Below, one piece after another: positions 6,346 to 22,061 of a DNA stretch of 64,000 bases (its first letter is position 1; each line of letters opens with the position of its first letter). Both the position numbers and the translations under genes were made by a program. Below the pieces are notes generated by a model that saw only the letters and a list, made by a program, of their open reading frames with translations, had not been told where the DNA came from and did no database searches. Where the stretch lies: contig JAVBNT010000003.1 of NCBI GenBank assembly GCA_031551355.1, positions 1,520-65,519 on the forward strand. The letters are read 5' to 3'. The stretch comes from Candidatus Xenobia bacterium. GTDB taxonomy: Bacteria > Vulcanimicrobiota > CADAWZ01.

Positions 6346-8526
6346 ATGAATTTTCTTTATTTTTTACGCCTGGAAATCAAACGCTGTTTTTTGTCACCGG
6401 CAACATGGGTGGTGGCGATGCTGACGATATGCGCCCCGCTGGCCGGATACTGGTTTTATAAAGCAGTTGTGTTCGCCAGCAGAGCCGGCACATATATCGC
6501 CAATCCTGTGATGGCCGGCAGTATCGGCGGTGTGATTTTATTTTCACTCCTGACATTGTATGAACTCAGCAGAATCCAAGAAAATAAAATTAACGCCATC
6601 ACCGACTCAATCGTTTCCCCATTCACGCTTAATGCCGTCAAAATCACCTCCCTGCTGACGGCGGCAACCGTTACCGGCATTTTGACAACGCTTGTTTACC
6701 TGCCATATACAATCTACAAAACAGATTATCTCTTCGATGCCGGCACTTATTTCGGCAGTTTTTTGATAATATTTCTTCCGGCGTTATGGATTGCATGTCT
6801 TTTTTCCGCAGTTTTTTATCAGATAACGGAGCGAACCGATTTAAGCTTTATACTGCTGGCCGCCTGCGCCGCTCCTTGTTTTGGGAAATTTATGGCCCCT
6901 GAATTTATTCTTAGATGGATAAACCCGATTACAATTTATTTCAACGATATTTTTTCCAATTCAAATGTATTGAGACTTGCGGCTTACAACAGAATCTTTT
7001 GGTTGCTACTATTAACAGGAACACTTTTGTTGTCTTTTCTATGCCTGCGCAGGTATGGCAAAGGACTTACAGACTCATTCATCATTAACATTCGATATTG
7101 GCGGATACCGCTCATATCATCGCTGTTATTAGCTTCCGGTCTCTGCATTTACATATTCCAGCCCTTTGTAAACCACTCCGGTTCAGACACAGAAGTCCGC
7201 AGGGCAAAAAATGAAGGCATCACAATTCTTTCAACTTACACATATGCCAAACCAAATCCAATTACCGGTATTCAATATGGAAAAACGACAATCAAACTGG
7301 CAAGAAAATCATCTGAGCCGCGAACATGCAAGTTCTCAATCGACTGCGGATATAAAGTAAGTTCTATTACCGCAGATGGCAAATCCATCTCCTTCGCCGA
7401 CCTGAACGATGATTACATTCTATGGAAACAAATTTCGCTGGCTCTTCCCAGGGGGAAGTTTACAGAACTGGTAATTACCTATAGCGGCTATCCGCAAATA
7501 TGGAAAAAATCAATGCCGAATATACTGGCAAATGAAATAAACAACCGGTTTATACAGCTTCCCGGCGGCTCTTTCAGCCCGATATTTAATGCCGATAAGG
7601 ACAAAAAAATTTCTCAGACAGCGGACATCGTGCTTCCCGGCCATATGATTCCGGTCACAACAACTGGTGATGTAAAGTTACTGCAAAGCAATAAAGACAG
7701 CACAAAAACATGGCATCTTGATTTCAAAAGCCATGACAGAATCAGGGTATATGCCGCCGATTATTTACATCAAAAAATTAATTCCCGGGGAATGTCGGTA
7801 GAATTTTATTACGGCCGCAGAAGTAAACCGGTTATGGACAAGTATCGCCTTGCAGAAACACTGAAAGAAGTTTTTGATTATTGCTCAAAACAATACGGCC
7901 CCATAGAATACACCAAAAACAATACGCTGATTTTATTGCAGGAGTCATCACTGGGAGGCGGAGCCGATAAAGGGATAAGTTTTTTCGGAGAGATAACATT
8001 TTCAGAAGACAGCCTAAAAGACCCTAAGCGCGGAGCTTCGGGAATGGAAGTTATGGCTCATGAAATCGCCCATCAGTGGTGGGGACTGGGGGTTGTATTT
8101 GAAGGAGCATACGGGGGCAGTAACAATTATGAGTGGACCTCTGAAGGATTCACAGTCTTTACTACTTACAGAATGATGAAGGAGAAATTTGGAGCCGATT
8201 ATGCAAAAAAATACTATATCGACGTGTGGAAAAAAGAATTAAAAAACAGAAACAGGGACTTCTACTACCGCCGGCCGGAATACTTAGATATATTGCCGGA
8301 ACGGTTTTCCTCAAAAATAAAATCTCAAAGCTGGGGTGTCGATGAATACTGCGTTATGCCGCTTAAAATTCTCAAAGCGGCGGAACTTATCGGCGGCGAA
8401 GACAAGATGGACGGGATAATGGCTAAACTTTATCAAATGAAGGCTAATCAGGAAGACTCCTTCCTGAGTTATGACGAATTTCTATCTGCATGCCACCTTA
8501 CGGATAAAGATCTTGAGTTGAAATAA
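6346..8526 (+). CDS. Second permease + M1-type metallopeptidase fusion (paralog of 3382-5574)
   Basis: The N-terminus MNFLYFLRLEIKRCFLSP is nearly identical to the paralog's. HEIAHQWWG...YEWTSEG zinc motif. Colinear similarity over the whole length. Confidence 0.8.
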   Translation: MNFLYFLRLEIKRCFLSPATWVVAMLTICAPLAGYWFYKAVVFASRAGTYIANPVMAGSIGGVILFSLLTLYELSRIQENKINAITDSIVSPFTLNAVKITSLLTAATVTGILTTLVYLPYTIYKTDYLFDAGTYFGSFLIIFLPALWIACLFSAVFYQITERTDLSFILLAACAAPCFGKFMAPEFILRWINPITIYFNDIFSNSNVLRLAAYNRIFWLLLLTGTLLLSFLCLRRYGKGLTDSFIINIRYWRIPLISSLLLASGLCIYIFQPFVNHSGSDTEVRRAKNEGITILSTYTYAKPNPITGIQYGKTTIKLARKSSEPRTCKFSIDCGYKVSSITADGKSISFADLNDDYILWKQISLALPRGKFTELVITYSGYPQIWKKSMPNILANEINNRFIQLPGGSFSPIFNADKDKKISQTADIVLPGHMIPVTTTGDVKLLQSNKDSTKTWHLDFKSHDRIRVYAADYLHQKINSRGMSVEFYYGRRSKPVMDKYRLAETLKEVFDYCSKQYGPIEYTKNNTLILLQESSLGGGADKGISFFGEITFSEDSLKDPKRGASGMEVMAHEIAHQWWGLGVVFEGAYGGSNNYEWTSEGFTVFTTYRMMKEKFGADYAKKYYIDVWKKELKNRNRDFYYRRPEYLDILPERFSSKIKSQSWGVDEYCVMPLKILKAAELIGGEDKMDGIMAKLYQMKANQEDSFLSYDEFLSACHLTDKDLELK

Positions 8527-8532: not shown

Positions 8533-8606
8533 GCGGAAACCACCCCGACGCTCCGCGTCACCCCTCCGGAGGAGGGGAATTCATTAAAATCAAAATCAAT
8601 TCAAAC
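8533..8606. repeat. Family A repeat, 'head' module (GCGGAAACCACCCCG.CGCTCCGCG.CACCCCTCC...GGAGGGGAATTCATTAAAATC..AATCAATTCAAAC)
   Basis: The same module recurs at 10463, 34349, 34708 and 34870. It contains the short hairpin CCCCTCC/GGAGGGG. Here it is separated from its hairpin module (8825-8951) by about 220 bp of other repeat fragments: a family B fragment at 8627-8690 and the hairpin ccctctccc-gcaa-ggggagaggg near 8715. Confidence 0.7.
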
Positions 8607-8824
8607 ATTCTATTGATAAAAAATATGAGGCACTCAATTGCGTCTATAGGCTAAGGCAAGCCGGATTTTAACGAGTAAACTCTACTGTAATCAGAACCAT
8701 TCACCCCGGCCCTCTCCCGCAAGGGGAGAGGGAGAAAAGATAATGGTATAAATCTTTTCAACTCTATTGAAAAAATTAATTCAAAAAGATAGAAGTTCCG
8801 ATAAAATACATACATTATAAAGAT

Positions 8825-8951
8825 AAAATCAATTGAAACGGGCGGAGATGCTAAGTCAAAGACAAATTCTACGAGCGAGGCGTAGTCATCTCTACGGTAA
8901 GCGAGAGAATTTGTCTGCGACGACGCAGATTCGCCCGTTTCAATTGATTTT
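8825..8951. repeat. Family A long palindromic element (hairpin module)
   Basis: TCAATTGAAACGGGCG...GACAAATTCTACGAGCGAGGCGTAG // CTACGGTAAGCGAGAGAATTTGTC...CGCCCGTTTCAATTGA is a nearly perfect ~55-bp-arm inverted repeat. Copies at 10520-10646, 30236-30369 and 34349-35047. Confidence 0.85.
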
Positions 8952-10271
8952 AAGGATGCGCCCCCAGTGGGGAGATACTTGTATCTCCTCTCCGGAAAAA
9001 TTTTCCCCGTTCAGCAGATCATAAAACTTCCCGCCGTATCCAGGCAGCTTCACGGCAGCTTCCTGATCGGCTGTATTGATAACAACAGTAATTTTTTCAT
9101 TTCCCAATGCTCTTTCAAAGGCAAACTGCTGCTCATACGTTACCAAAATCTGTTTATAGCTGCCTTTGGACAATACCTTATTTTCATTTCTGATCGCCGA
9201 CAGCTTTTTGATCACGTCTTTTAAATGCATTTCCGAACCGCTGATATTATGCAAGTCAAGATACGGCCTGAGCTGGCGGTCGGAGTCGCCGCCTTTTATT
9301 CCTTTTATCCCCCATTCGCTGCCGTAATATATAGACGGTATCCCGGGAACCGTATACAGAAGCAAATAAATTGTATACAGATCATGCGGATTGCCGGCAA
9401 TGCTTGCCAGCCTGCTCTGATCGTGGTTATCTACAAAATTATACGGCAAAAAATTTCTGTAAATACCGCCATCGGCGGCGAACTGCCTGTTCAGGGAATA
9501 AGCTACCTCAAATAAATTCCTGTCATTATGGCTGGAATACAAACCTTTATATAATTCATAGTTGGTCACGGAATGCAGCAGCTCTCCGTTTGCCCAGCGG
9601 CTGTAATCTCCATGCACCACCTCACCCATTAGCCAAAAATCGGCTTGAAAATCCGTCGTTCTCCATCTGAGTTCCTTCATAAAATCGAAATCGAGGCAAT
9701 CCGCGGCATCAAGCCGCAAACCGTCAATATTAAAAAATTCCAGCCAATACTTAACGGCGGCAAACAGATATTCTCTGAGCGAAGGATTGCGCAAATTAAA
9801 CTTTACCAGTTCATAATATCCGTTCCAGGTATCGTATGTAAAAGGATCTCCCAACGGACTGCGCCGGGAGAAATCAACACCGGAAAACCAGGAACAGTAT
9901 TCGGAATGTTCACCGCGCTCACAGACATTCCTAAATGCAAAAAAGTCTCTGCCGCAATGATTAAATACACCGTCAAGAACAACACGGATATCATTTGCAT
10001 GCAACAAATCAATCAACTCTTTAAATCCGTCATTGTCACCGATACGGTTGTCGATCTGAAAATAATCGGTTGTGTCATAACCATGAGTTTTTGCTTTAAA
10101 AACCGGACCGAAATAAACGGCATTACACCCCATTTCCTTTATATGAGAGACCCACTTCCCTATTTCCCCCAGACGGTTTTCCACGGCAGCATAATTATTT
10201 TCAAACGAAGCATGACACAGACCCAACGGATAAATATGATAAAAATTTGCCTCCCGATACCAATAATCCAT
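8940..10271 (-). CDS. GH13 alpha-amylase family glycoside hydrolase (neopullulanase/cyclomaltodextrinase-like, no signal peptide)
   Basis: All four GH13 regions are present: DGVFNH, GLRLDAADC, LMGEVVH, FVDNHDQ. Confidence 0.85.
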   Translation of the reverse strand: MDYWYREANFYHIYPLGLCHASFENNYAAVENRLGEIGKWVSHIKEMGCNAVYFGPVFKAKTHGYDTTDYFQIDNRIGDNDGFKELIDLLHANDIRVVLDGVFNHCGRDFFAFRNVCERGEHSEYCSWFSGVDFSRRSPLGDPFTYDTWNGYYELVKFNLRNPSLREYLFAAVKYWLEFFNIDGLRLDAADCLDFDFMKELRWRTTDFQADFWLMGEVVHGDYSRWANGELLHSVTNYELYKGLYSSHNDRNLFEVAYSLNRQFAADGGIYRNFLPYNFVDNHDQSRLASIAGNPHDLYTIYLLLYTVPGIPSIYYGSEWGIKGIKGGDSDRQLRPYLDLHNISGSEMHLKDVIKKLSAIRNENKVLSKGSYKQILVTYEQQFAFERALGNEKITVVINTADQEAAVKLPGYGGKFYDLLNGENFSGEEIQVSPHWGRILKIN

Positions 10272-10286
10272 AATCTTTATCCTTTT

Positions 10287-10310
10287 TATATACCTACCGA
10301 TAGGTATATA
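10287..10310. promoter_or_regulatory. Palindrome TATATACCTA-CCGA-TAGGTATATA just upstream of the amylase start
   Basis: Arms of 8-10 bp are exact reverse complements. It shares the TATACC/GGTATA half-sites with the palindrome in front of the TetR gene (11395-11410). Confidence 0.4.
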
Positions 10311-10462
10311 AATGTTTATTTTTTAGGGAATTAAAATAAAAGTTTAATTCCCTCATTATGCCAGATATAAAAACTATACGTCATTGCGGCTTCCGAGCCG
10401 CGATCTCAGATGTTCCCGGCATCCCGCCGGAAGATGGGCGGGCGAATATTCAAGTTGACTTA

Positions 10463-10646
10463 GCGGAAACCACCCCGCCGCTCCGCGGCACCCCTCCAAA
10501 GGAGAGGAATTCATTAAAATCTTAATCAATTCAAACCGGCGGAGATGTTAAGTCAAAGACAAATTCTACGAGCTAGACGTAGTCTTATCTACGTCTAGCG
10601 AGAGAATTTGTCTGCAACGACGCAGCTTCGCCGGTTTCAATTGATT
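10463..10646. repeat. Family A element, complete unit (head + hairpin)
   Basis: Colinear with the units at 34708-35047 and with 8533-8606 plus 8825-8951. Confidence 0.85.
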
Positions 10647-10653
10647 CCAAAAA

Positions 10654-10770
10654 GGCAGTCAATTGGGTCTGAAGGCTAAGGCAAATTAGATTTCGACGAG
10701 TGAGGCGTAGCGGGACTACGCCGGAATGAGCGATATCTAATTTGACAACGCATGCGGGCACAATTCACTG
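10654..10770. repeat. Family B palindromic element
   Basis: GGCAGTCAATTGGGTCTGAAGGCTAAGGCAAATTAGATTTCGACGAG...CTACGCCGGAATGAGCGATATCTAATTTGACAACGCATGCGGGCACAATTCACTG. Copies at 14319-14708 (interrupted), 40166-40284 and a fragment at 8627-8690. It ends 9 nt from the TetR stop codon. Confidence 0.8.
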
Positions 10771-10778
10771 TCTTTTCA

Positions 10779-11384
10779 TTAGGAGTGGATGCCATGCATA
10801 AATTGTTTTACCACTCTCATTGCCAAATCTTCCTCCAAAGAAGCACTGTCAAAATTATTATAGTAAAGTCCGATAAAAGAATTTATCATCCCCAAAAAGG
10901 TCCAGGCAAAGATCGTTTCCTTTCCCTGCATGTTCGTATGCACAGCGGAAAAACTTTTAAACATTCCATGCACAACCTCATACTGTCTGAAATGATATTT
11001 CTTCACAATATGGTATACCGGTGATGAATCCGGCATAAACAGATTGGACAGCACCATTCTGTAAAATAATTCATTTTCTCTGGCAAATTCAAAATATTTA
11101 GAGGCAAGCCTTGTGAGAACAAGATGAACGTCATCAAAATAAGATGACGGATTTGGCAGATATTGACCGGCGAAGGCAGCCATTTGCTCAAGCATTCCGT
11201 AATAACCGGCAATCAGCTGCTCATAAAGGCCTTCCTTGCTGCCAAAATAATAATACAGAGTAGGTTTGGTAATACCGGCGGCATTTACAAGCTCCTGAAC
11301 GGAAACGGCCTCATAGCCTTTTGCCGAAAAAAGCTCCAATGCACACTTGAGTATATTTTCTTTCACCGAGGGATTCACAGTCAT
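10779..11384 (-). CDS. TetR/AcrR family transcriptional regulator
   Basis: N-terminal HTH: ILKCALELFSAKGYEAVSVQELVNAAGITKPTLYYYFGSKEGLY. ATG at 11384 is preferred over the track start at 11420, which would cover the operator-like palindrome. Confidence 0.85.
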   Translation of the reverse strand: MTVNPSVKENILKCALELFSAKGYEAVSVQELVNAAGITKPTLYYYFGSKEGLYEQLIAGYYGMLEQMAAFAGQYLPNPSSYFDDVHLVLTRLASKYFEFARENELFYRMVLSNLFMPDSSPVYHIVKKYHFRQYEVVHGMFKSFSAVHTNMQGKETIFAWTFLGMINSFIGLYYNNFDSASLEEDLAMRVVKQFMHGIHS

Positions 11385-11394
11385 AAAACAATTA

Positions 11395-11410
11395 TATACC
11401 GATCGGTATA
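11395..11410. promoter_or_regulatory. Perfect 16-bp palindrome TATACCGATCGGTATA, candidate TetR operator
   Basis: Exact reverse-complement symmetry, 11 nt upstream of the TetR ATG, in the 60-nt gap between tldE and tetR. Confidence 0.5.
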
Positions 11411-11441
11411 CAGTTGTCAAATACTTTTATTTTTCAATCTT

Positions 11442-12680
11442 TTAAACGTTTGTTTCAACATTCATATTGACAATCAGATAACCGTAAAGGTCACCGGAAT
11501 AAAGACCCTCTGCAATAACACCGACAAAATCTTTACCAAACATATCATACAGATTCGAACTTATTGTCAGCTCCGGCAAACGCCCGATAATATTCTCACC
11601 GTCAAAAAGGAACGACGACTGAACCGGAGCGGCAAAATTACCTTCAGAAGTGAAGCCGCCGCCCTGAGAGATATCAATAAGCACAGCTTCCTGTCCGGCA
11701 AGAAGCTCTGACATACTTCGTGGCGAAGGCTCTGCATATAGAGCCGGAAAGCCTATATCCGGAACCTGATCATAAGCGAAAGACGCAGAAGAGGTTCGCG
11801 GATAGTCATATTTAAGGGCGGTCATTTTATCGGTATACGGGTATTTTATAACGCCCTTGTCGATCAGAACAAACTTATCATTTTCAAGAACCGTTCCTTC
11901 TCCGTCAAAAAAAGGAATGTACTGGATTGCGGAATTTCTGTTTATTGAAAGGGAAAAATTACTGCTGAACAGTTGTTCTCCGATTTTATCGGAAAATATC
12001 GAGGCTTTTTCGGCAACGTTTATACCGTGTAAATCAAAAAACTTACCAAAAATTTTGCAGTCAGGCCCTGACTTAAATACAACAGGAATTTTTGTTTTTG
12101 TAGATACACTCACTTGATTATCATAAGCTCCGCATAAATCCGAGACCATTTTCAACCATCCATCTTTATCATATCTTCTTGATTTGTAAACTACCGACAT
12201 ATCAAAAATATTTGTAGATCGGTTATGGTTCAGCAGCAAATCCGAGGATACGTAAGCATCTCTGTAAACAAGTTCAGCCCCACCACTATTGCCGATTGAT
12301 ATTTCCACATCCTGAAAGATGATATTGCCGAAGCCACAGGAAAAAGAAGATTGCGTATCCAGAAGATTTATTATCTCCGAAGCACCTTCAATAAGTTCAT
12401 CATAAGAAACTTTACACTCGCTTGAAAAATCCTCAGCCCTTTTTAGCCCGGCAGCAGGCATGGCTGTATAAAAAATATTATGCTTAAACATACTCTCGGC
12501 CCTGGATACCAGTTCCTTTTTATCATAACTGCCGATTGCCGAAGCAATGCCAATATTGCTGCCGTCATAAAGACGCAAGCCGGTCTTTACGGAAGAAGAT
12601 TTCAGAATATTTTTCATCTTACCGCTTACGATATTAATCTTAAACTTATCATTTCTATGAGTAACCCATTCCTCAACCAT
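11442..12680 (-). CDS. TldE/PmbA family metalloprotease subunit
   Basis: About 410 aa with the TldD/PmbA fold signature by eye (C-terminal GG..T.G.F...V...F....G). It lacks the HExxxH motif and lies immediately downstream of tldD, the usual pairing. Confidence 0.7.
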   Translation of the reverse strand: MVEEWVTHRNDKFKINIVSGKMKNILKSSSVKTGLRLYDGSNIGIASAIGSYDKKELVSRAESMFKHNIFYTAMPAAGLKRAEDFSSECKVSYDELIEGASEIINLLDTQSSFSCGFGNIIFQDVEISIGNSGGAELVYRDAYVSSDLLLNHNRSTNIFDMSVVYKSRRYDKDGWLKMVSDLCGAYDNQVSVSTKTKIPVVFKSGPDCKIFGKFFDLHGINVAEKASIFSDKIGEQLFSSNFSLSINRNSAIQYIPFFDGEGTVLENDKFVLIDKGVIKYPYTDKMTALKYDYPRTSSASFAYDQVPDIGFPALYAEPSPRSMSELLAGQEAVLIDISQGGGFTSEGNFAAPVQSSFLFDGENIIGRLPELTISSNLYDMFGKDFVGVIAEGLYSGDLYGYLIVNMNVETNV

Positions 12681-12687
12681 AAAAACC

Positions 12688-14022
12688 TCACTTTACGGAT
12701 AAATTCCTTACTCTTACATACGGACCGCCTTCACCGATGGGAAGCGGCATCTGTTCTATCTTGCCACAGCCGATGATGGAATATAATTTAACCTCGTCCG
12801 ATATCCCGTCAATATCCGATAAAGCACGCGACACATTGCCGAAAATTACGGAAACCTTTACCGGCCTTGTTATACACCCGTTTTCTATATAATAAGCAAG
12901 AATCGGGGAAAAAGAAAAGGTGGACAATCCCGAACCAGCTCCACACTGCTTCAAAAATATCCCTTTTCCCACACCGGCAGCAAGTTCTTCAAACGTTTGC
13001 GTTCCTTTATCAATATAAGTAGTAGTCATTCTGACAATCGGTTCAAATTCATAACTTAAAGCTCTGGCATTGCCGGTCGGAATCTCATTCCTTTCTAAAG
13101 CAGTAGAAACCGTATGCATCTTTCCAGCAAGAATGCCGTTTTTAATCAGATAATTTTTCTTCGCTTTTATGCCCTCATCATCATATGGAGTATATCCAAA
13201 TGATTCAACGGAACCGTCATCAATAATTGATAGATTTGCAGGGGCAATCTTTTTACCGGCCGCCCACTCCTCTTCCGATACTTCATTGGCCGAACCTAAA
13301 TCAGCCTCACTCTTATGGCCAAAACACTCATGGGCGAAAATACCGGCGGCATCAGGAGCAAAAATAACCGTATAAGTTCCCGGTTCAACCGGTTCGGAGT
13401 TCAGCATACTTTCAACACATTCGTCAATATATGACGATAATGAATTCTCGTAATCAGCAATTTCATTAAATGCTTTGCCGCTTTTTGTATAATATCCAAA
13501 CGATTTTTTTTTGCCCTCAGCCAGATTCAGACGCGTTTGCAGCATGCAATACTGCTTATCATATTTTATATCCGCACCTTTACTGTTATAAAATTCCTTC
13601 ACAATATGATTATCAAGATAACTGGGACGGAATATTTTCAGATACTTATTTTCTTCCAATAAGGGAATTTGCTTCTTCACCAAAGCAAGCTTATCATCAA
13701 GATTAATTTTAGAGACGTCGGATTCAGAGAACTTCATCACTGTGTCACGGGAGGAACTGAAGAGATTATGGATCGGAAGTTTTGTTACATCCGTTTTGAC
13801 GGAGACAAGACTTGCCAGCGATTCAATTTCCTGTTGGAGATTATTGATATCGGTTGTATTGGCGCACCAAAAACGGCTGCCGTCAAAAACACGGATAAAT
13901 GCCGCACTGTAACTTTTTACGATGCAATTCTTCAGTCCGGCATTCCGAAACATTATCTCAGCAGAATTTATATGTTCAATGCGAACATCGGTATAAAGTC
14001 CCTCAGGAAATGTATATTTCAT
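12688..14022 (-). CDS. tldD: TldD family zinc metalloprotease
   Basis: 444 aa. HECFGH (the HExxxH motif of TldD) in GIFAHECFGHKSEADL. SD AAGGAG upstream. Confidence 0.8.
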   Translation of the reverse strand: MKYTFPEGLYTDVRIEHINSAEIMFRNAGLKNCIVKSYSAAFIRVFDGSRFWCANTTDINNLQQEIESLASLVSVKTDVTKLPIHNLFSSSRDTVMKFSESDVSKINLDDKLALVKKQIPLLEENKYLKIFRPSYLDNHIVKEFYNSKGADIKYDKQYCMLQTRLNLAEGKKKSFGYYTKSGKAFNEIADYENSLSSYIDECVESMLNSEPVEPGTYTVIFAPDAAGIFAHECFGHKSEADLGSANEVSEEEWAAGKKIAPANLSIIDDGSVESFGYTPYDDEGIKAKKNYLIKNGILAGKMHTVSTALERNEIPTGNARALSYEFEPIVRMTTTYIDKGTQTFEELAAGVGKGIFLKQCGAGSGLSTFSFSPILAYYIENGCITRPVKVSVIFGNVSRALSDIDGISDEVKLYSIIGCGKIEQMPLPIGEGGPYVRVRNLSVK

Positions 14023-14318
14023 TTTTACTCCTTATGCAATTCGACCTTTCTCTAAAATACGGACGACTCCAACTTATTGAATTATAAAAATATCAAAACA
14101 TGTAATCTTTTTATTTAGAGCAACTTGTAAAAATGTAGACAATACTTTACAAATATGCCGTGACCATTATCAAATTTATTACACCTACGGATATTGCCGG
14201 ATGGCTTTTACCTGATTGACATAGGCTATGTTAAATCAAGTTGATCTAAAAACTTATCTTTCAAATATTTCAAATCCTTTTAATATGACAAAAACAGCAG
14301 GAATCAACCGATAGTACT

Positions 14319-14708
14319 GAGGCACTCAATTGCGTCTATAGGCTAAGACAAATTAGATTTCAACGCGTGGACTCAATGTCATTAAGTTAGTGTTTTTCAT
14401 TGTCGATTCTGATATCTTTTGGATGTTAACGGAGTCCCTCACAGAGGGCACAGAGGCCACGGAGAATAAATACTAGTATAGCATAAATTAAATAACTGGA
14501 TAAATATTGATTTGAATTACAGAATGGACGAGATTAAAATTGAGGCCAATGAGAGTCCAGTTATTTAGTTAACTATATACTAGGTAAAACTCTCTGTGTT
14601 CTCATCTTCTCTGTAAGAAACCCTTTTCTCTTAACTTAATGCATTGAGCTGACTACGCCGGAATGAGGGAATATCTAATTTGACGACGCATATAGGCGCA
14701 ATTCAGTG
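14319..14708. mobile_element. Family B element carrying nested insertions (three levels)
   Basis: The B left half (14319-14371) and B right half (14649-14708) are separated by a 277-bp element with terminal inverted repeats CTCAATGTCATTAAGTTAG / CTTAACTTAATGCATTGAG (14372-14648). That insert itself contains another inverted-repeat element (ctagtatagcataaattaaataactgga ... tccagttatttagttaactatatactag). Confidence 0.75.
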
Positions 14709-14710
14709 TC

Positions 14711-16252
14711 TCATTCCACGAGGCAGAACTTATCATCTAACCCCAACTCACGGCCCATATCACCCATAAGCCATTCAAGAACAGTCTTGCAATGCGTGCA
14801 GAAAGCCAAATCAAGAGCAAACATATCACCCTGCTTGACAAACGCCTCATCAGCACAGCCGCCTCCGCAAATAGATAACCCGACACAGTCATAACATTCC
14901 GGCATTTGAAGTGGGGTTCTGCGGCACCAATCACTCGAAAGCTCGCTTTTAAGAATCTTTTGCTTTAAATCAGGTTCGTCAATATGTCCCCAGACAAAAC
15001 GTCCGTCATCTGCGGCGATATGGCAGGGGCCGACAAGACCGTCGGCACAGAGCGCAAACTGCCCTCCGTATCCTCCGCAATCATAAATCCATGGTGTTTC
15101 ATTTATAAAAGACTTAACTTTTCTCATTATACGGTCTTCGTAAATACCGCATTTGCGAAGAATTTTGTAAGCGTCGATAATTTTATGAGTCACTTCGTCC
15201 GCTGGGAGTTCGATACCGGAATCAGGCGGAAGTCCCTTCATTATATTAAATCCGAATCCTGTGCATTCAAGCTTAAAAACGAAATACTCAACAATGGATT
15301 CGATATCTTTATAATTATGCGGACCAAGCGTGCAGGAAATACCTACCCGGCCCAGCCTGTTTTTCAAAATAGCATAGCCCCTGAGCGCATCGTCAAACGA
15401 TCCGCTGCCGTCGGCATAAAGCCTGACGGCATTGTGATGGTGTTTCAGGCCGTCAATAGAAATTGAGCCGCCCATTCGCAAATCAAACAAATCTTTGGCA
15501 ATATCGTCAGTAATAAGGGTTCCGTTGCAGACCATGGAAACATCAACCGAAGAGTCTCCAAAAGCGCCTTCTTCTTCCACCTTACGGATATATTCAAGAG
15601 AATTTTTCATAACAGCCCAATTAAGCATCGGTTCTCCGCCGTAATATGTAATCAGCGGGTTCAACATGCGCTTGTTTACCATTGACGCAAAAAGATCTAT
15701 TCCCTTTTTTGCCGAATCCTCATCCATCATGCTGTAATTAAATCCCGACGGCTTACGGCATTCACTCTCTATAGTGCAATACTTACAGCGTAGGTTGCAG
15801 TTGTTGGTTATCAGCAAATACATAAGTCCGATAGTGGGATGGTTAAACGTTATTCTAGCTCTATATGAATCAAGTATAGAATCTTTGGTCTCGTTTTCGC
15901 CAACAAGAAACCCGCATTCAATCAAAGTAAAAAGATCTTTCCATGGATCACGTCCTTCCGTAGACGATGACAGAATGGTAAAATAGTCCTGAAGAGGATG
16001 CGGTTCTGCAGCCATTCGGTAAATTTTTTCAATTTCATTGCCGCCAAAAACTTTTTTTATATTAAGAGAATTATAAAGGGCGCAGTTATTTTTCGATTTA
16101 AAAAGGAACGCAAAAGGAGATCTTTTATAAATAGGCTTTAAGGTTGGAAATGAGCGCAAAACCGGCTCTCTGTAAAGCCAGGAATCAACTCCGGCAACAT
16201 CTTTTTGCATTTCGGGTGTAACAGGGGAAAAATGCTGCTCATATTTACTCAT
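14711..16252 (-). CDS. Radical SAM / SPASM-domain enzyme with ~140-aa N-terminal extension
   Basis: CNLRCKYC (CX3CX2C) preceded by IGLMYLLITNN. C-terminal Cys clusters CGGYGGQFALCADGLVGPC and CYDCVGLSICGGGCADEAF are typical of SPASM/twitch auxiliary clusters. ATGA overlap with the upstream gene. Confidence 0.85.
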   Translation of the reverse strand: MSKYEQHFSPVTPEMQKDVAGVDSWLYREPVLRSFPTLKPIYKRSPFAFLFKSKNNCALYNSLNIKKVFGGNEIEKIYRMAAEPHPLQDYFTILSSSTEGRDPWKDLFTLIECGFLVGENETKDSILDSYRARITFNHPTIGLMYLLITNNCNLRCKYCTIESECRKPSGFNYSMMDEDSAKKGIDLFASMVNKRMLNPLITYYGGEPMLNWAVMKNSLEYIRKVEEEGAFGDSSVDVSMVCNGTLITDDIAKDLFDLRMGGSISIDGLKHHHNAVRLYADGSGSFDDALRGYAILKNRLGRVGISCTLGPHNYKDIESIVEYFVFKLECTGFGFNIMKGLPPDSGIELPADEVTHKIIDAYKILRKCGIYEDRIMRKVKSFINETPWIYDCGGYGGQFALCADGLVGPCHIAADDGRFVWGHIDEPDLKQKILKSELSSDWCRRTPLQMPECYDCVGLSICGGGCADEAFVKQGDMFALDLAFCTHCKTVLEWLMGDMGRELGLDDKFCLVE

Positions 16253-17541
16253 AACTGCCTATTCCTTTCCGCAATGTCCGCAAGCACATTGAACACTAAT
16301 TTATTTATAAAGCGGCATACTTTTATATCGGGCTCATTTTCATTTTTTGCCCGGCATTTTACACATATACCATAGGCCGGACATAAAAAGCACTCCTTTT
16401 TTCCGTAAAATTCCTCTGAATCGCCGATTAAAAACGGGCAGGAATGATTATTCCCGCAAGCTTTTATAAATATTGAGTGCCTATTTAAATTACACAGATT
16501 GCCAATGAATTCTTCACGTGTAAGACAAAATATTTTTTGCCCCCAGACAAGCTCCCTTATATGTTCCTGCCTCAGCATAGAAAAAATATTATAGTAATCA
16601 TCAGCAAGCTGCTCAGGGTTTTCAAATATCTGAGGAAGCTGCAGCCTGACAGCATCTCCTAGCAATTCAGGAGATTTTTCAATAATATGCGGCAAATGCG
16701 AAATCCAAAAATCAGACAATTCAAAAACCGGAATAAATGCACTCTCCGGCATTTTATTACGGTAAAGAACCAGCTCCGGTAAAAAATCATCATCATCGAC
16801 AAAAACAATGATCTCCGACGGATTCAACGTTTCCAGAATACTGCCAAGGCCGCTTAATACACCGGCTCTGACGATAAAAATAATTCTTCCCGACCTTGAG
16901 GTTACGAGCTCACGGATATCCCTCATTGCAACGCCGTCGCAGGGCTGAGGACAGGCATCAAGACTGACGACAAGGCTCTGATAATTTTCATTGCTCTTAA
17001 GCTCACTTAGCAAAGAAGAAAATGAAAATGTTTCCGAAGGACCTGAAGGTTTAAAATAGAAGTCACAAAACGGCAAAAAAGCGCCGCATGCAGCCATCAA
17101 AACAAACTCACTCCCGCAGGAAAGATGTCTATTGGCAGCCGTCTCTTTCAAGTCAGGCTGCTGCTCCAAAAAGGTCTGCGGCAAAATCTTTTTAGCTTTG
17201 GCCGAATCTTCGGGAAGAATAAAATAGTTCTCGGTAAGAAATTTTATAACATCGGAATACCCGCCTAATGAAGAAGACAGACGGCGCAATTCACTATATG
17301 TAAATGGACGGCGGCTTAAAGCTTGCCAGAACTCAGCCAGTGCTGCAGTCCCTACTACTTTTTTCATGGATGTGTTATGAAAAAGCAAATTCAGTTCTTC
17401 AAAAAAAGTAACATGCGGCGACACAAACGCATGCGAATCCGCATTCAAAAAAGACAGCCATACCTTAGCTGAGGATTCATCAAATAACTCTATCTGATCT
17501 GCCAGCTCAAGCCTTTGCTGTAATGACGGTTCAACAACCAT
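16249..17541 (-). CDS. Uncharacterised 430-aa protein with Cys-rich C-terminus (SPASM-like), no canonical CX3CX2C
   Basis: The C-terminus is CGNNHSCPFLIGDSEEFYGKKECFLCPAYGICVKCRAKNENEPDIKVCRF. Only a degenerate ACPQPCDG sits where a radical SAM motif would be. The N-terminal segment resembles a PqqD/RRE-like winged helix by eye. Translationally coupled to the radical SAM gene. Confidence 0.6.
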   Translation of the reverse strand: MVVEPSLQQRLELADQIELFDESSAKVWLSFLNADSHAFVSPHVTFFEELNLLFHNTSMKKVVGTAALAEFWQALSRRPFTYSELRRLSSSLGGYSDVIKFLTENYFILPEDSAKAKKILPQTFLEQQPDLKETAANRHLSCGSEFVLMAACGAFLPFCDFYFKPSGPSETFSFSSLLSELKSNENYQSLVVSLDACPQPCDGVAMRDIRELVTSRSGRIIFIVRAGVLSGLGSILETLNPSEIIVFVDDDDFLPELVLYRNKMPESAFIPVFELSDFWISHLPHIIEKSPELLGDAVRLQLPQIFENPEQLADDYYNIFSMLRQEHIRELVWGQKIFCLTREEFIGNLCNLNRHSIFIKACGNNHSCPFLIGDSEEFYGKKECFLCPAYGICVKCRAKNENEPDIKVCRFINKLVFNVLADIAERNRQL

Positions 17542-17645
17542 TTTTTCAACCTTCCCAATAACAAATATTTAAAATAAAACAGTAACGGCAGGCACAAGGA
17601 ATAAATCCCGGCACCTACCGATCTGCGTAAAATAAATAACTATTA

Positions 17646-19376
17646 TCAATTTGTCTTGAATGACGGCAAAATATCTATCGGCACTTCATACAATGTTTCA
17701 AAAGTTTTACTTAAATGTGAAGCAATATGCCCGTATTTATCAACCAGCAGACTTGCCTGGTCATAACTGCCGTTTCTCTGAATATCAAGCAGTGTTTTGG
17801 ACAAAGAAGTATTTGCACTTCTGAACTTTGCAAAATCCACGCTATAAGTTCCCGTTTTGGCATCATAGACAAAAGCGCCTTTATCCATCATCCAGTTAAG
17901 CTGAATAAGAGCCCCCAGTCCATGAGCCTCTTCAACACCAAAACGTATTGAGCGGAAAAGACCGGTCAGGTAGGATACACACATGTTTTCATAATCGTTT
18001 TTATCAATAATACCTTTATCCATAAGGTAGAACTGATTATACATCGCCAGCGTGTCGGCCTTGCACTCCTCTATTGAAGAATAAAGATCGCCGAGGCAAA
18101 TTCTCACATCCTTACGGGAGCCGTCAGCCATCTTTAGCTCGCCGGGCCCGAGTCCATGAGCCAGTTCATGGAAAACAACATCCCGGAAATAAGATTCAAA
18201 TTTCACATATTTAAGCTGCTTTGGCTCGATAACTTTTTGCGCGATCGGATATGTGCTGCCGGCGAATTTTGCCGACATCACGTTTTTAAGCATAACTTTT
18301 TTGCAGCCCTTTTCTTTTCTCACACGTTCATCATTAGGCAGGGCGAATGCTGATGTATGAACTCCGGCCTTGGCATCGCCCGCCGAGTAAATAAGGTTGG
18401 CAATGCGTATCGGTGAAGTGAAGTCACGATCCATATTTTTATCGGCGTCGGGAATAGGCAAGTTCTTTTCAAGTTCAGGCAGATATGAAACATATGAGGA
18501 GAATGCTTTGGCTTCCTGGGGAAGATTCTGATAAATAAAAGCTTCGTAAGCAGCTTTATAGTTCATGAGGTTATCTTCATATACTTCATAAGGGCCGATA
18601 ACCAGTTCAAGAGCGCTGTCTTCAATTGTCATCCAATCGACATCGCTTCTATAATAGTCGTCGCTGAGAAAAGCGTCGGCTCTTGAGAGAAGATAACGGC
18701 GCAGGCTTTCGTTTTCTGCAAATTCAGCGGCTTTTCTCAGTAAAGCGGCAGCTTTTTTCAGTTCCTGAGCATATTCCCTGTTGTAAGGAACGGCAATCAG
18801 TTTACCACCGGATCTCTTGATTACAGTAAATTCACCCATAAAACTTTTTTGTTCTTCCGGATGGTCAGCCACCCATTTTTCAAATTCACTTTTGGTCAGA
18901 TCAGAGGGATAAAAATTAGCTCCGGCCGGACGTTTTTCATGTCCGTAAAACGGATTCATATCATTGATCCTGTCAAACGGGCAGGCATTGAAAACAAAGT
19001 AGCGCAGAGTAAGGGCATCAAGCGGATCTTTAGAGTTTTTAAGTTTTTCAAGAATCTCTTCGTTACGCGAGTATGCCTGCTTCAAAAAAAGTTTATCCAT
19101 TTCCCCGGCAGCTTCCAGCAAATACACAAGCATTTTCTTTTCTTTTTCCGTCAAAACGGACTCATCATATTTGATGTCTACCGGGTGAAGCTTGGACAGT
19201 TGGCCTTTTATGTAGGTAATACGTTCGAGGCGTGTCCAGTATGACGGACCGTAATTAAGCGGCAGTTGGAAGATCTGTGCTTCAATATCCTGTTTGGGCG
19301 GTGCCGCCGCACTGATATTCAGCGGCACGGCAATGAAAAAAAACGAAATCATCAACGCAATAACAAATCTGACCAT
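17646..19376 (-). CDS. Secreted M49 (dipeptidyl-peptidase III)-like zinc peptidase, pentapeptide HEXXH variant
   Basis: HELAHGLGP plus the downstream EECKADTLAMY (second M49 motif EEXK/RAD/E). ATG 19376 follows GGAGG and gives a signal peptide, MVRFVIALMISFFFIAVPLNISAAAP. Confidence 0.65.
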   Translation of the reverse strand: MVRFVIALMISFFFIAVPLNISAAAPPKQDIEAQIFQLPLNYGPSYWTRLERITYIKGQLSKLHPVDIKYDESVLTEKEKKMLVYLLEAAGEMDKLFLKQAYSRNEEILEKLKNSKDPLDALTLRYFVFNACPFDRINDMNPFYGHEKRPAGANFYPSDLTKSEFEKWVADHPEEQKSFMGEFTVIKRSGGKLIAVPYNREYAQELKKAAALLRKAAEFAENESLRRYLLSRADAFLSDDYYRSDVDWMTIEDSALELVIGPYEVYEDNLMNYKAAYEAFIYQNLPQEAKAFSSYVSYLPELEKNLPIPDADKNMDRDFTSPIRIANLIYSAGDAKAGVHTSAFALPNDERVRKEKGCKKVMLKNVMSAKFAGSTYPIAQKVIEPKQLKYVKFESYFRDVVFHELAHGLGPGELKMADGSRKDVRICLGDLYSSIEECKADTLAMYNQFYLMDKGIIDKNDYENMCVSYLTGLFRSIRFGVEEAHGLGALIQLNWMMDKGAFVYDAKTGTYSVDFAKFRSANTSLSKTLLDIQRNGSYDQASLLVDKYGHIASHLSKTFETLYEVPIDILPSFKTN

Positions 19377-19432
19377 ATATCCTCCCTCAACGGTAAAAAA
19401 TAAACAAAACAAGCGTCTTATTAATTAATTAT

Positions 19433-20920
19433 TTACAAGGAGAAGACCTTTTCACCTGCTGCATAGGTTGCTAAAATTTTTATTTCCCTTAAATTTTGCG
19501 ATGAGACTTTATACGGATGATGCGACAGAACAACAAAATCAGCCTTTTTTCTAACAGCAATGGAACCAAACCTGTGTTCATCAAACGAGAAACGGGAAGC
19601 GGAAGAAGTGAACAGGGCTACAGCTTCTTCAACCGTCAATGATGAGGCAGGATTGGAGTGGTTTACGGCAGCATAAATACCTGCAAGCGGGTCCATCGGC
19701 GTAACATCAAAGTCAGAGCCGCCTCCCATTACAATTGAACGCCGATACATCTGCCTGAAAGGATTGGCCATCTTAGCCCGTTCAGAGCCAAGGCGCTTCT
19801 CATACATAGAATTTTTGCCGTTCCACAGCAGATCAAATACCGGCTGAACACCGACATAAAGGCCAAGCTGTGATATTTTATCAATATCCGCCGGTGACGG
19901 AAGCTCACAATGTTCAATTCGGTGGCGGTGATCTCTTTTAGGGTCTTTAAAAAGAACTTTGTCATAAACGGAAACAATCTGCTTTATAGCCCGGTCACCG
20001 ATAGCATGGAAAGCCGTTTGCAATCCGGATCTATGCGCCCGCTCGACAAAAGATAACAGTGCCCGGTCGGAAAAATACAGACTACCGCTGTTTGCGGGAT
20101 TGTCGTTGTATGGTGCCGACAAAGCCGCCGTTCCGGTGCCCAGAGAGCCATCCAAAAGCAAACAGCCGCCGACACGGCTAAGACCGCGCGATTTTATCCA
20201 ACCAAGATTTACTGTCTGAGGATAAATAATTATTTCCGGACCGGCATATGGCGTCCTGATTTTAGCTAGTAAAAAATCCACATCACCCATCCCCCAGCCC
20301 TCTCCGCCCTCCAGTGCATGAACTGCAGTTATGCCTTTGGAAACAGCAAACCGGCAAGCCCCGGCAAAAGCGATCTCACGCTCTCCATCGGTAGTAAAGG
20401 CATTGAGATGTTTACACAGCCATAAATATGCGGCAGCGGAAAAGATCCCCATGCGGACTTTTTCACAGTCAAGCTCTTTGGGTATTTTAAGCAATTTAAG
20501 GGCGGCACTGTTAATGACGGCCGAATGAGAATCAATTCTGAAAGCGGCCACAGGCAAGACTTCCGAAACCGCATCTAAACCCGATTTATCCAGCGGTTGG
20601 GGCCAGGAAGAATCATCATAGCCATAACCCTTCTTCCAAAGCCCCGGAGAATCGAAACTCAAAAAAACATCTATCATCTCGGAACACGAACGGCACGAAA
20701 ACAGTTGTGCCGATGACAGCGACAAAGCCGAATGCAAAAAGTGGGTATGGGTGTCGATAAACCCCGGCAGCAAAGCATGTCCGTTAAGGTCGATAATTGT
20801 ATCAGGGAGCTCCGTTAGCTGTAACTGCGGGCAAATCCTGACAATAATTCCATCCGCAACCAGAATAACAGTATCCGGATTTAAAGACGAAACAAAATTT
20901 TTGAATAGCTTTACAGACAT
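19433..20920 (-). CDS. Amidohydrolase family protein (YtcJ-like metal-dependent hydrolase)
   Basis: PGFIDTHTHFLH (HxH metal site), AFHAIGDRA, HRIEHCE, GGSDF. About 495 aa, typical of the amidohydrolase_3 family. Confidence 0.75.
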   Translation of the reverse strand: MSVKLFKNFVSSLNPDTVILVADGIIVRICPQLQLTELPDTIIDLNGHALLPGFIDTHTHFLHSALSLSSAQLFSCRSCSEMIDVFLSFDSPGLWKKGYGYDDSSWPQPLDKSGLDAVSEVLPVAAFRIDSHSAVINSAALKLLKIPKELDCEKVRMGIFSAAAYLWLCKHLNAFTTDGEREIAFAGACRFAVSKGITAVHALEGGEGWGMGDVDFLLAKIRTPYAGPEIIIYPQTVNLGWIKSRGLSRVGGCLLLDGSLGTGTAALSAPYNDNPANSGSLYFSDRALLSFVERAHRSGLQTAFHAIGDRAIKQIVSVYDKVLFKDPKRDHRHRIEHCELPSPADIDKISQLGLYVGVQPVFDLLWNGKNSMYEKRLGSERAKMANPFRQMYRRSIVMGGGSDFDVTPMDPLAGIYAAVNHSNPASSLTVEEAVALFTSSASRFSFDEHRFGSIAVRKKADFVVLSHHPYKVSSQNLREIKILATYAAGEKVFSL

Positions 20921-21109
20921 GAAATTAAGCTCTCCCCACAGTGTAAGACTTCACCGGGTTTATCATAAATAATAATTAGCAGCCTCTAAAAACTCTCTGT
21001 CATCCTCGCGAATGCGGGAAGCCACTATTTTATAATAATCGCCGTATTAAAAATAATAATTGCGTAAAGCGGTTATTTAACTGGAATTCCAAAAAGAGGA
21101 TATTAATAA

Positions 21110-22025: not shown

Positions 22026-22061
22026 CCGTTTTTGTTAATAAATCAGAGGTTCCTTAAACAT

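Follow-up and report, generated by a model that had tools for sequence, protein, structure and literature searches.

A radical SAM/SPASM maturase-type enzyme paired with a catalytically degenerate paralog in a Candidatus Xenobia bacterium

In the 64,000-nucleotide stretch of Candidatus Xenobia DNA analysed here (the window), the conserved unit is a minus-strand gene pair (17541-14711), of which one gene encodes a 513-aa radical SAM (rSAM)/SPASM enzyme of the peptide-maturase type, and the other a 430-aa protein, the "partner", which profile alignment identifies as a paralog of the adjacent enzyme that has lost the CX3CX2C cluster motif. An active rSAM maturase with a catalytically dead copy is a rare pairing, kept in related bacteria. 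A sequence-only reading of this DNA had joined the two genes to downstream tldD, tldE and TetR genes in a RiPP-like maturation locus; all five ORFs are present on the minus strand where it had placed them (Table 1), but the five-gene "locus" is no unit. The explanation that we favour, at somewhat better than an even chance, is that of an active rSAM/SPASM maturase with a dead paralog and a Cys-rich substrate encoded elsewhere, TldD, TldE and TetR being unrelated.

Table 1. Features of the gene pair and its surroundings (window positions)
Feature	Coordinates	Strand	Basis
TetR-family regulator	10779..11384	minus	TetR_N 1.5e-18
Perfect sigma-70-type promoter, TTGACA-18-TATAAT	11391..11420	minus	sequence reading
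TldE/PmbA-type non-catalytic TldD partner	11442..12680	minus	Pfam PmbA_TldD_3rd 1.7e-22
TldD-type metalloprotease, HECFGH	12688..14022	minus	Pfam PmbA_TldD_3rd 1.2e-46
Native spacer upstream of tldD, ~295 bp	14023..14317	minus	weak promoter-like matches, no precursor-like ORF
Composite MITE-like insertion	14318..14713		outer arms 14318-14358 / 14673-14713
Radical SAM/SPASM maturase, 513 aa	14711..16252	minus	Pfam Radical_SAM; TIGR04136 best NCBIfam; 22-member ortholog clade
Partner, 430 aa, catalytically degenerate rSAM/SPASM paralog	16249..17541	minus	hhalign, cysteine map
M49 (DPP III-like) peptidase with signal peptide	17646..19412	minus	synteny with pair
Amidohydrolase	19433..20920	minus	syntenic with M49 gene in L049 and L004

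The radical SAM/SPASM enzyme

The 513-aa protein matches Pfam Radical_SAM (2.3e-14) and, as the sequence-only reading had noted, carries CNLRCKYC (the CX3CX2C cluster motif, residues 152-159) together with a full set of seven SPASM cysteines (C392, C410, C453, C456, C462, C466 and C485), motif and cysteines alike being invariant in 22 orthologs. Its SPASM region can be aligned with those of CteB and TigE in a search of PDB sequences. The profile searches that had been proposed for both proteins were informative for this one, whose best NCBIfam match is the FibroRumin maturase family TIGR04136, aligned end to end (profile positions 4-455 of 458 against enzyme residues 47-501). Its score, 229.5 bits, stays far under the curated equivalog cutoff of 400. 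As the score falls under this cutoff, the chemistry may be unlike that of the TIGR04136 family, for which a literature search found no characterisation.

In the AlphaFold model of the enzyme (pLDDT 85), residues 41-118 (pLDDT ~94) form four strands (41-70), three helices and a short strand (116-118). Foldseek searches with this model place CteB and TigE at the top, aligned over the full length. The match to these two RRE-bearing enzymes takes in the N-terminal domain and spans 479-481 columns, as against just ~387 columns for the RRE-less anSME. Pfam reports no PqqD match in the enzyme and the isolated N-terminal domain has no match in the PDB, so that the claim of RRE domains in both proteins is partly confirmed: the model and the CteB/TigE alignment indicate an RRE-like N-terminal domain (~41-118) in the enzyme, and the corresponding region of the partner is placed by hhalign (see below). 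These data support placing the 513-aa protein among radical SAM/SPASM enzymes of the peptide-maturase type and reading its N-terminal domain as RRE-like.

The partner as a degenerate paralog

The two genes overlap by 4 nt, the partner's stop codon sharing an ATGA with the rSAM start, which bears out the translational coupling described earlier. The partner itself has zero matches in Pfam and NCBIfam, retrieved itself alone in a 5.8-billion word-indexed search and two relatives in an exhaustive 1.8-billion search, and yields an unreliable structure model (pLDDT 48). When the partner family is aligned with the rSAM family by hhalign, the match extends over the full length (99.7%, E 2e-26, 441 columns), pairs the N-terminal region of the partner with the RRE-like region of the enzyme, and establishes, at the level of profiles, the homology of the SPASM-like region. 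P0122, a partner homolog, aligns over its full length with the window rSAM enzyme (E 8e-27), matches TIGR04136 and passes the cutoff of the SPASM domain model TIGR04085 (42.6 bits against 27), whereas the window partner, the most diverged of its family, matches no profile.

The partner has a leader-like stretch at its N-terminus (MVVEPSLQQRLEL...), followed by an RRE-like region and by a barrel that is degenerate and has no CX3CX2C, and its C-terminus is SPASM-like. The site that the profile alignment shows to be homologous to CX3CX2C reads 'AACGAFLPFCDFY' (residues 150-162), where the middle cysteine, C159, alone is left of three, and CX3CX2C is found in none of the five partner sequences. 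The sequence-only reading had thus recognized the loss of the motif but had located it wrongly, since the CPQPC that it singled out (residues 197-201) aligns with the GGEP segment of the rSAM enzyme. The SPASM-like C-terminus retains C350, C368, C384, C387, C393, C396 and C409, which fill 7/7 SPASM cysteine positions, with CX2C instead of CX3C as the last pair; C350, C368, C387, C393 and C409 are invariant across the five partner sequences, and one SPASM cysteine position varies among them.

The partner evolves at ~2x the rate of the enzyme, identities between the window and the related locus L001 being 23% for the partner and 52% for the enzyme, and those between loci L048 and L049 being 49% and 71%. 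This fast divergence, together with the variable SPASM cysteine, could reflect relaxed constraint. One possibility, which we regard as improbable, is that the pair is a decaying, functionless remnant of a RiPP cluster whose precursor has been lost: the strong divergence of the window partner, the lack of a precursor in 64 kb, the MITE-like element at the rSAM stop codon, and a C-terminal tail of the enzyme that departs from the ortholog consensus would all agree with decay. However, both ORFs are intact, the enzyme retains all invariant catalytic and cluster residues of its clade, the ATGA coupling is preserved, and at least three other genomes share the conserved precursor-less layout, in-frame fusions included.

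Conservation and context of the pair

The adjacency of partner and rSAM enzyme is found in the window and in eight other loci (nine in all), in two of which they are fused into one ORF. The gene directly upstream of the rSAM ortholog is that of the partner in the window, in L001, L129, L130 and L131, and on the contigs of P0005 and P0006, while L048 and L049 encode single ORFs of 1004 and 1015 aa; the partner was assigned by sequence everywhere except on the P0005 and P0006 contigs, where position, size and the absence of a Pfam match were used. Because this adjacency is conserved in nine loci and becomes a fusion in two, a functional link between partner and enzyme is supported.

In relatives (L001, L048 and L049), the M49 peptidase gene is the sole neighbour to remain in synteny with the pair. 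The window is also rich in unrelated peptidases (two M1-like, M49 and M28). In L001, L048 and L049, just 6-30 bp separate secA from the pair behind it, and two kinase genes and the M49 peptidase gene come before the pair; on the P0005 and P0006 contigs a kinase comes after it. Such surroundings, together with the absence of a precursor within 10 kb in the same three loci, would suit a housekeeping protein modifier that acts on a cellular or secreted target without Cys repeats and is, in this lineage, expressed together with secA and Ser/Thr kinases; anSME and QhpD are SPASM enzymes that act on proteins, and thus provide a precedent. We nevertheless consider this reading unlikely, although less so than that of a remnant: the enzyme clusters with the peptide maturases and has kept a domain of the RRE type, Cys-repeat ORFs adjoin it in sister loci, and neither secA nor the kinases are found near the window pair.

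The substrate

No plausible precursor ORF is present in 14023-14710 or 17542-17645, as had been reported, and the same holds for the 64-kb window as a whole, which contains no Cys-rich ORF or precursor-HMM match and neither a small CxCxC-rich precursor nor a giant Cys-repeat gene. A comparison with neighbourhoods free of the MITE-like element had been suggested as a check. In L001, L048 and L049 no precursor was found near the pair (10-kb flanks), and since these MITE-free loci are likewise precursor-less nearby, the earlier proposal that the precursor was displaced by MITE insertion is unlikely. Relatives at 29-40% identity, in turn, nearly always have a small CxCxC-rich precursor gene alongside (56 + 20 loci). 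Three lineages of the enzyme's own clade (L005/L050/L051, L130 and L132) have giant Cys-repeat ORFs next to the enzyme gene. A probably Cys-rich nature of the substrate is thus read from relatives that are 44-50% identical. Its gene probably lies elsewhere in the genome, a location that the sequence-only reading had listed among its options and that agrees with the lack of a nearby candidate.

The N-termini of the clade enzymes and of their partners resemble the leader peptide of outgroup precursors, while outgroup enzymes are without such an extension. This resemblance suggests that the N-terminal extension may be a leader captured in cis.

On the favoured explanation of an active maturase with a dead paralog, the paralog would have arisen by duplication of the rSAM enzyme, leaving two translationally coupled genes, and would have dropped the SAM-cleaving [4Fe-4S] motif while retaining most of the SPASM cysteines as well as the N-terminal region that is RRE-like. 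The paralog would most likely serve as the non-catalytic subunit of a heteromeric enzyme, in substrate binding, as a scaffold or as an electron relay. By family relationship, the enzyme would most likely install radical-mediated cross-links on a Cys-rich substrate, possibly of the thioether type, as in its closest solved relative CteB, and this substrate would probably be a long protein with Cys repeats, like those encoded next to sister enzymes, its gene lying elsewhere in the genome.

Relation to known systems

Contrary to what had been surmised, the system is not wholly undescribed: it is indeed of the peptide-maturase type, but belongs, as a divergent branch, to a family of Cys-rich-peptide maturases that is already known. 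With the FibroRumin maturase and its unnamed relatives it shares the architecture of RRE-like region, rSAM and SPASM, and differs in the absence of the adjacent small Cys-rich precursor gene and, at the level of the clade, in the dead paralog partner and the leader-like N-terminal extension.

The closest solved structures to the 513-aa enzyme are those of CteB (SCIFF thioether/sactionine maturase, PDB 5WGG) and TigE (PDB 8VPO), with a sequence profile E of about 1e-35, a Foldseek E of about 1e-20 and a TM of about 0.75 on target, at an identity of just about 20%. TigE has been described as a radical SAM cyclopropyl synthase (PMC10878394). CteB and TigE each work alone, their substrates being short leader-bearing peptides from adjacent genes, and neither is known to have a dead paralog as partner.

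An rSAM/SPASM enzyme with a separately named SPASM protein also occurs in GeoRSP (TIGR04303 and the SPASM-only TIGR04304, the latter presumably without the rSAM motif), and a SPASM-only partner in the sister locus L005 weakly matches the GeoRSP models. The window partner, however, matches neither TIGR04303 nor TIGR04304, and partners of its type are full-length duplicates of their own enzyme, RRE-like region included, either upstream of it or fused to it. In the Dph1-Dph2 heteromer of eukaryotic diphthamide synthesis, two paralogous radical SAM-type subunits are associated and the catalytically essential cluster resides in one; with the window pair it has neither fold family nor chemistry nor substrate in common, and the likeness is one of analogy only.

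TldD, TldE and TetR as neighbours

The HECFGH motif of TldD and the TldE-like nature of its neighbour can be read as described: PmbA_TldD domains are present in both proteins, the HExxxH motif in TldD alone (the TldE translation, read directly, has no HExxH), and the genes are adjacent, with 7 nt between the tldD stop and the tldE start. In E. coli, TldD/TldE (PmbA) processes microcin B17 and CcdA. The window proteins share these traits with the E. coli pair but fall well short of the equivalog cutoffs of NCBIfam (216 against 635). They belong to the TldD/PmbA proteins of ~445 aa, a widespread family in which the members that bear names come chiefly from anaerobic Firmicutes; the TldD family is very large, with 2824 proteins at E<=1e-20 among 8000 candidates scored, the best identity being 52%. 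Elsewhere, TldD and TldE occur as stand-alone pairs in housekeeping contexts.

The TetR gene has a TetR_N helix-turn-helix domain and the perfect 16-bp palindrome that had been attributed to it. Its listed TTG start (11420) falls on the -35 box of a perfect promoter, and the true start is probably the ATG at 11384. The palindrome, TATACCGATCGGTATA, lies at 11395-11410, between and over the promoter boxes, and is a probable autoregulatory TetR operator; no copy exists upstream of the pair (17542-17645) or of tldD (14023-14317), the palindrome being present just in TetR's own promoter, with near-matches at 10293 and 62577.

That the five genes form one RiPP-like locus, in which TldD/TldE would cut the leader and TetR would regulate, is suggested by their closeness on the same strand, the known processing of microcin B17 and CcdA, and the lack of any terminator-like site on the minus strand between rSAM and tldD. 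Yet homologs of TldD, TldE and TetR were found by tblastn in 0/126 loci that carry rSAM relatives, and none was called in three further loci and the two contigs of P0005 and P0006. The housekeeping contexts of orthologous TldD/TldE pairs, the separate promoter and operator of TetR, the 688-bp spacer with MITE-like DNA that parts rSAM from tldD, and the abundance of unrelated peptidases in the window likewise argue against a single locus, which we judge very improbable. The link of TldD, TldE and TetR to the rSAM pair is not supported, and the non-conservation that the sequence-only reading had itself named as counting against its proposal is what was observed. TldD/TldE is a housekeeping peptidase pair and TetR probably an autoregulated repressor, bystanders unrelated to the maturase unit.

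The MITE-like insertion

A MITE-like insertion lies between the pair and the TldD/TldE and TetR genes. This element abuts or overlaps the stop codon of the 513-aa rSAM gene. Its outer arms measure 41 nt and are 80% complementary, and an internal insert is bounded by an inverted repeat (14453-14500 / 14556-14603). The description as a "triple-nested MITE" is not established: the inner inverted repeat is single-copy in the 64-kb window, whereas the outer element belongs to a repeat family of which the window also contains a compact member of ~125 bp (about 10650-10775) and partial copies at 8605-8677 and 40246-40286.

The maturase pair and its gene context

The 513-aa radical SAM/SPASM enzyme and the 430-aa protein encoded before it probably constitute a rare variant, two-subunit or fused, of a Cys-rich-peptide radical SAM/SPASM maturase, and it is the partner together with the enzyme that forms the conserved unit. 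The facts set out in the sequence-only reading, which had described a five-gene RiPP-like locus at this position, were largely correct. The genes for an M49 peptidase, the partner, the enzyme, TldD, TldE and TetR follow one another on the minus strand, and an ATGA overlap joins the second to the third. The remainder of the window holds unremarkable anaerobe housekeeping genes, including several for peptidases, and encodes a Tex-like protein, a transaldolase, an ABC ATPase, two M1-domain membrane proteins, an alpha-amylase-family enzyme, an M28 peptidase, MnmA, cysteine synthase, a phosphate butyryltransferase with an acetate/butyrate-type kinase, histidine ammonia-lyase and rubrerythrin. Neither a RiPP exporter nor a further RiPP gene was found in the window, and an Rfam scan of positions 10000-22500 gave no match. 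The two M1-like membrane proteins are paralogs of ~730 aa (3382-5574 and 6346-8526), each with its M1-peptidase-like domain at the C-terminus; their genes lie 2952 bp apart, downstream of the ABC ATPase gene, and share DNA stretches that are 70-85% identical.

Genes around the maturase pair in the window, and Cys-repeat open reading frames in related loci (L-numbers denote DNA loci around relatives of the enzyme)
Feature	Location	Strand	Remarks
M49 peptidase	19412-17646	-	family assignment by profile search
430-aa partner	17541-16249	-	no Pfam or NCBIfam match
513-aa radical SAM/SPASM protein	16252-14711	-	
rSAM-tldD spacer	14710-14023		688 bp
TldD	14022-12688	-	HECFGH
TldE/PmbA-like protein	12680-11442	-	
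TetR	11420-10779	-	as listed
Cys-repeat ORF, L005/L050/L051	L005:7694-8386	+	230 aa, 53 Cys, signal-peptide-like N-terminus
Cys-repeat ORF, L130	L130:12781-13794	+	338-codon open frame (~240 aa from proposed start), 90 Cys
Cys-repeat ORF, L132	L132:6777-7649	+	about 270 aa; public calls are antisense genes

The radical SAM/SPASM enzyme

The enzyme carries the CNLRCKYC motif and a full set of SPASM cysteines, both invariant across its 22 orthologs (42-54% identity; hereafter the clade), and those members of the clade that bear names come from Eremiobacterota/Vulcanimicrobiota MAGs. Its top NCBIfam match is the FibroRumin-system maturase model TIGR04136, which aligns end to end at 229.5 bits, below the model's cutoff of 400 bits, and which is followed by ranthipeptide, QhpD, SCIFF and other peptide-maturase models; a literature search on 'FibroRumin' and 'TIGR04136' found nothing. 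By sequence profile, the nearest solved structures are CteB (5WGG) and TigE (8VPO), the alignment to TigE running from the N-terminal domain onward. In the AlphaFold model (pLDDT 85), this domain comprises four strands (41-70), three helices and a short strand (116-118), at a pLDDT of ~94. Foldseek with the same model ranks CteB and TigE first, over 479-481 aligned columns, whereas anSME, which has no RRE, aligns over only ~387; together with the modelled fold, this difference makes an RRE-type domain at the N-terminus of the enzyme likely. The Pfam PqqD model did not detect such a domain in the enzyme, and the N-terminal domain, searched on its own against Pfam and PDB profiles, gave no PqqD or RRE match.

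A predicted dead duplicate

A word-indexed search of 5.8 billion proteins returned the partner itself as sole match, and an exhaustive search of 1.8 billion representatives identified two relatives, P0122 and P0123, the gene of the latter lying immediately upstream of an ortholog of the enzyme in an Eremiobacterota MAG (L001, GCA_031082125.1). Direct BLASTP between the window partner and the enzyme is not significant (E 0.46), and their paralogy is detectable only by two routes: via the intermediate P0122, which aligns with the window enzyme over its full length (E 8e-27), matches TIGR04136 and clears the SPASM-domain cutoff, and via profiles, the two families matching over the whole length with 99.7% probability (E 2e-26). 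The CX3CX2C motif is absent from all five aligned partner sequences, the window partner reading AACGAFLPFCDFY at that site and those of L048 and L049 having no cysteine there. The same five sequences all share SPASM cysteines C350, C368, C387, C393 and C409, and mostly keep the remaining two. By these comparisons, the 430-aa partner is a predicted catalytically dead duplicate of the 513-aa enzyme. The CPQPC of the window partner, which had been placed at the lost cluster motif, was mislocated: the profile alignment sets it against the region of the enzyme's GGEP segment. A structure model of the partner, built on a 3-sequence alignment, reached a pLDDT of 48 and was excluded from the fold search.

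Conservation of the pair

The partner gene, identified by sequence, is located directly 5' of the gene for the enzyme, usually overlapping it, in the window, L001, L129, L130 and L131. The same order is seen on the contigs of two further relatives, P0005 and P0006, where a 493-532-aa gene overlaps the start of the enzyme gene; on these contigs, available without DNA, the partner was called from its size, its missing Pfam match and the overlap. Partner and enzyme share one uninterrupted ORF in L048 (1004 aa) and in L049 (1015 aa). Identity comparisons indicate that the partner half diverges at roughly double the rate of the enzyme half (49% and 71% identity, respectively, between L048 and L049; 23% and 52% between the window and L001). 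The remaining members of the clade have no upstream partner of this kind; downstream of the enzyme, L002, L003 and L047 encode a TPR protein and a spermine-synthase-like membrane protein, and L005, L050, L051 and L053 a SPASM-only protein.

Synteny is confined to the upstream side, where an amidohydrolase and the M49 peptidase are kept near the pair in relatives, the order in L001, L048 and L049 being amidohydrolase/M49, two Ser/Thr kinases, secA and then the pair; the genes 3' of the pair are different in each lineage. In these three loci (L001:3893-6694, L048:5388-8312, L049:6104-8938), secA, preceded by the two kinase genes, ends just 6-30 bp ahead of the pair, with which it may be co-transcribed. 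A separate set of recurring genes adjoins the maturase genes in L129:1538-5110, L130:15433-20537, L131:2638-6065 and L132:5121-6677 and 15422-17095: these encode T2SS-F/pseudopilin-like proteins, an S41 peptidase, a transglutaminase-TPR protein, a B12-binding radical SAM enzyme and a second small rSAM/SPASM protein, and none of them occurs in the window.

Candidate substrates

Clustering of the small ORFs located within 2.5 kb of the enzymes of relatives at 29-40% identity (hereafter the outgroup; sampled from Patescibacteria, Chloroflexia, cyanobacteria, Bacteroides-type and other MAGs) yielded two Cys-rich precursor families, of 56 and 20 loci, with leaders of the type '..(V/I)P...DF..I.G.I' or 'KKVSK.QL..VAG.I' followed by a CxCxC-type core. 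Within the clade itself, three lineages (L005/L050/L051, L130 and L132) carry giant Cys-repeat ORFs near the enzyme, whose products, about 230-290 residues long, contain 50-90 cysteines in CxC/CxxC repeats. That of L130 is part of a partner-type locus, and its public gene call lies in another frame; since the public calls for L130 and L132 follow the wrong frame or the antisense strand, such genes are probably under-reported in databases.

No Cys-repeat ORF was found in any frame of the window, nor within 10 kb in the syntenic L001, L048 and L049, and scans of the window and close loci by precursor HMM and Cys density gave only chance-level matches (E>1), in alternative frames of other genes. 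The most economical reading is that the substrate of the window pair is Cys-rich and encoded elsewhere in the genome. The earlier proposal of a peptide-maturase-type system with a remote substrate is supported. Comparative context can rationalise 'orphan' maturases that have no precursor nearby.

Two other sets of ORFs were considered as precursors and rejected. The 'DTGVCC' repeat ORFs of L048 and L049 arise from reading a lipoprotein gene with QQTPVS repeats in antisense. In L003, a 71-aa ORF precedes the ortholog, and L002 has a '...PLFP' ORF; the two resemble each other only as conserved upstream DNA, which L047 lacks. The conserved DNA in these two Vulcanimicrobiota-type loci (L002:7855-7990, L003:7900-8060), which in one frame reads '...PLFP' followed by two stops, is probably regulatory sequence or 5' UTR, and not coding.

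A leader-like motif on the enzymes

In their first ~20 residues, nearly all clade enzymes and all partners display the motif (F/L)xxP(S/T)xxxQ(R/K)xx(I/L)L(G/E)N(I/L), as noted on the window partner and enzyme (residues 1-60), P0009-P0023, L048, L049 and L130. Enzyme P0019 is a clear case (MLIFPTPEQRKRILGNIVD); further examples are enzyme P0013 (MFVSPSFNQRKMLLGNIE), partner P0122 (MFLRPSKQQREKILENIEN), the window partner (MVVEPSLQQRLELADQIE, also given as MVVEPSLQQRLEL) and the window enzyme (HFSPVTPEMQKDVAG). Between the motif and the RRE-like domain lies a linker of 20-40 residues, and residues 1-36 of the window enzyme are of low confidence in the structure model.

In sequence, the motif is similar to leaders found on precursors of the nearest outgroup (IIPSPEAERAILGNLE, VVPSKNSLEAILGNIK, LIPTIEDRLRILGALQ). 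With a leader HMM, the scores were 14.4 bits (P0019) and 9.5 bits (P0022), the maximum of 1500 shuffles being 6.9, and an HMM of the enzyme N-terminus, run against 5051 unique small ORFs, placed 8 of the 66 true Cys-rich precursors in the top 25 (hypergeometric p = 5e-10). Individual E-values are weak (0.1 or worse), and the likeness is therefore a statistical resemblance and not proven homology. The distribution of the motif is complementary: present on the clade enzymes, it is absent from 108 outgroup enzymes with precursors of their own (best 4.6 bits), and the giant Cys-repeat proteins adjoining clade members gave no leader match.

It is conceivable, if rather unlikely, that in this clade the leader peptide has shifted from the substrate onto the enzyme. 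Fusion of precursor and maturase genes would have left the leader on the enzyme, generating a natural 'leader-in-cis' maturase whose substrates would be very long Cys-repeat proteins devoid of a leader, and duplication after the fusion would have given rise to the dead twin. The usual picture of a radical SAM/SPASM maturase is of a lone enzyme that recognizes the leader peptide of a small substrate whose gene is adjacent. The clade departs from this picture in its obligate-looking partnership with a predicted dead duplicate, fused in some genomes, in the length, cysteine content and mis-called genes of its visible candidate substrates, and in an enzyme that possibly carries the leader sequence itself. 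If true, this would represent a natural counterpart of engineered 'leader-fused' RiPP enzymes and a new pseudo-enzyme partnership within the radical SAM superfamily, and its significance would grow with confirmation of either the leader in cis or the giant Cys-repeat substrates.

TldD/TldE and TetR

TldD/TldE and TetR, formerly counted as members of the locus, are bystanders of the maturase pair. Homologs of the three window proteins were found by tblastn in 0 of 126 loci around relatives of the enzyme, and none was called in loci and contigs added later; conservation of tldD/tldE beside the pair, for which the sequence-only reading had looked to relatives, is thus not seen in the 126 loci. 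The family of the window TldD is very large (2824 proteins at E<=1e-20 among 8000 candidates scored; best identity 52%), and in the two TldD+TldE contexts inspected the two genes stand alone, surrounded by genes of sugar metabolism or of the ribosome and accompanied by neither an rSAM nor a TetR gene. This is a cautionary case, in which the proximity of TldD/TldE to a RiPP-type enzyme is no evidence of a common pathway.

The listed TTG start of TetR (11420) falls on the -35 box of a perfect TTGACA-18-TATAAT promoter (11420-11391) that contains a 16-bp palindrome. This arrangement suggests that TetR is probably autoregulated and that its true start is probably the ATG at 11384; since this codon is only 6 nt past the -10 box, the transcript would have nearly no 5' leader. 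Neither the palindrome nor a near-match occurs upstream of the pair or of tldD. Near-copies with 3 mismatches are found at 10293-10308, ~25 bp before the start (10271) of the alpha-amylase-family gene, and at 62577-62592, ~120 bp upstream of a 685-aa gene starting at 62459, bringing the matches in the window to three in total versus 0.15 expected by chance; both near-copies are possible TetR targets.

The rSAM-tldD spacer and intergenic repeats

The spacer between the enzyme gene and tldD holds a MITE-like element whose outer arms are repeated elsewhere in the window, one of them beginning at the stop codon of the enzyme gene, and ~295 bp of native spacer is left upstream of tldD. The description of this spacer as occupied by a 'triple-nested MITE' was overstated. 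The stop codon (14711-14713) forms the extreme edge of the terminal arm, and the final ~12 residues of the window enzyme (GRELGLDDKFCLVE) do not follow AEKLxxSGxL, the consensus of the orthologs; the C-terminus may have been reshaped by the insertion. Another and larger repeat family between genes, which opens with AAACCACCCCGCCGCTCCGCGGCACCCCTCC, occurs at 8537-8949, 10467-10646, 30238-30368 and 34354-35046 as 4-8 copies of 86-179 nt units, partly in tandem at 34.3-35.0 kb, and often adjoins the MITE-like element.
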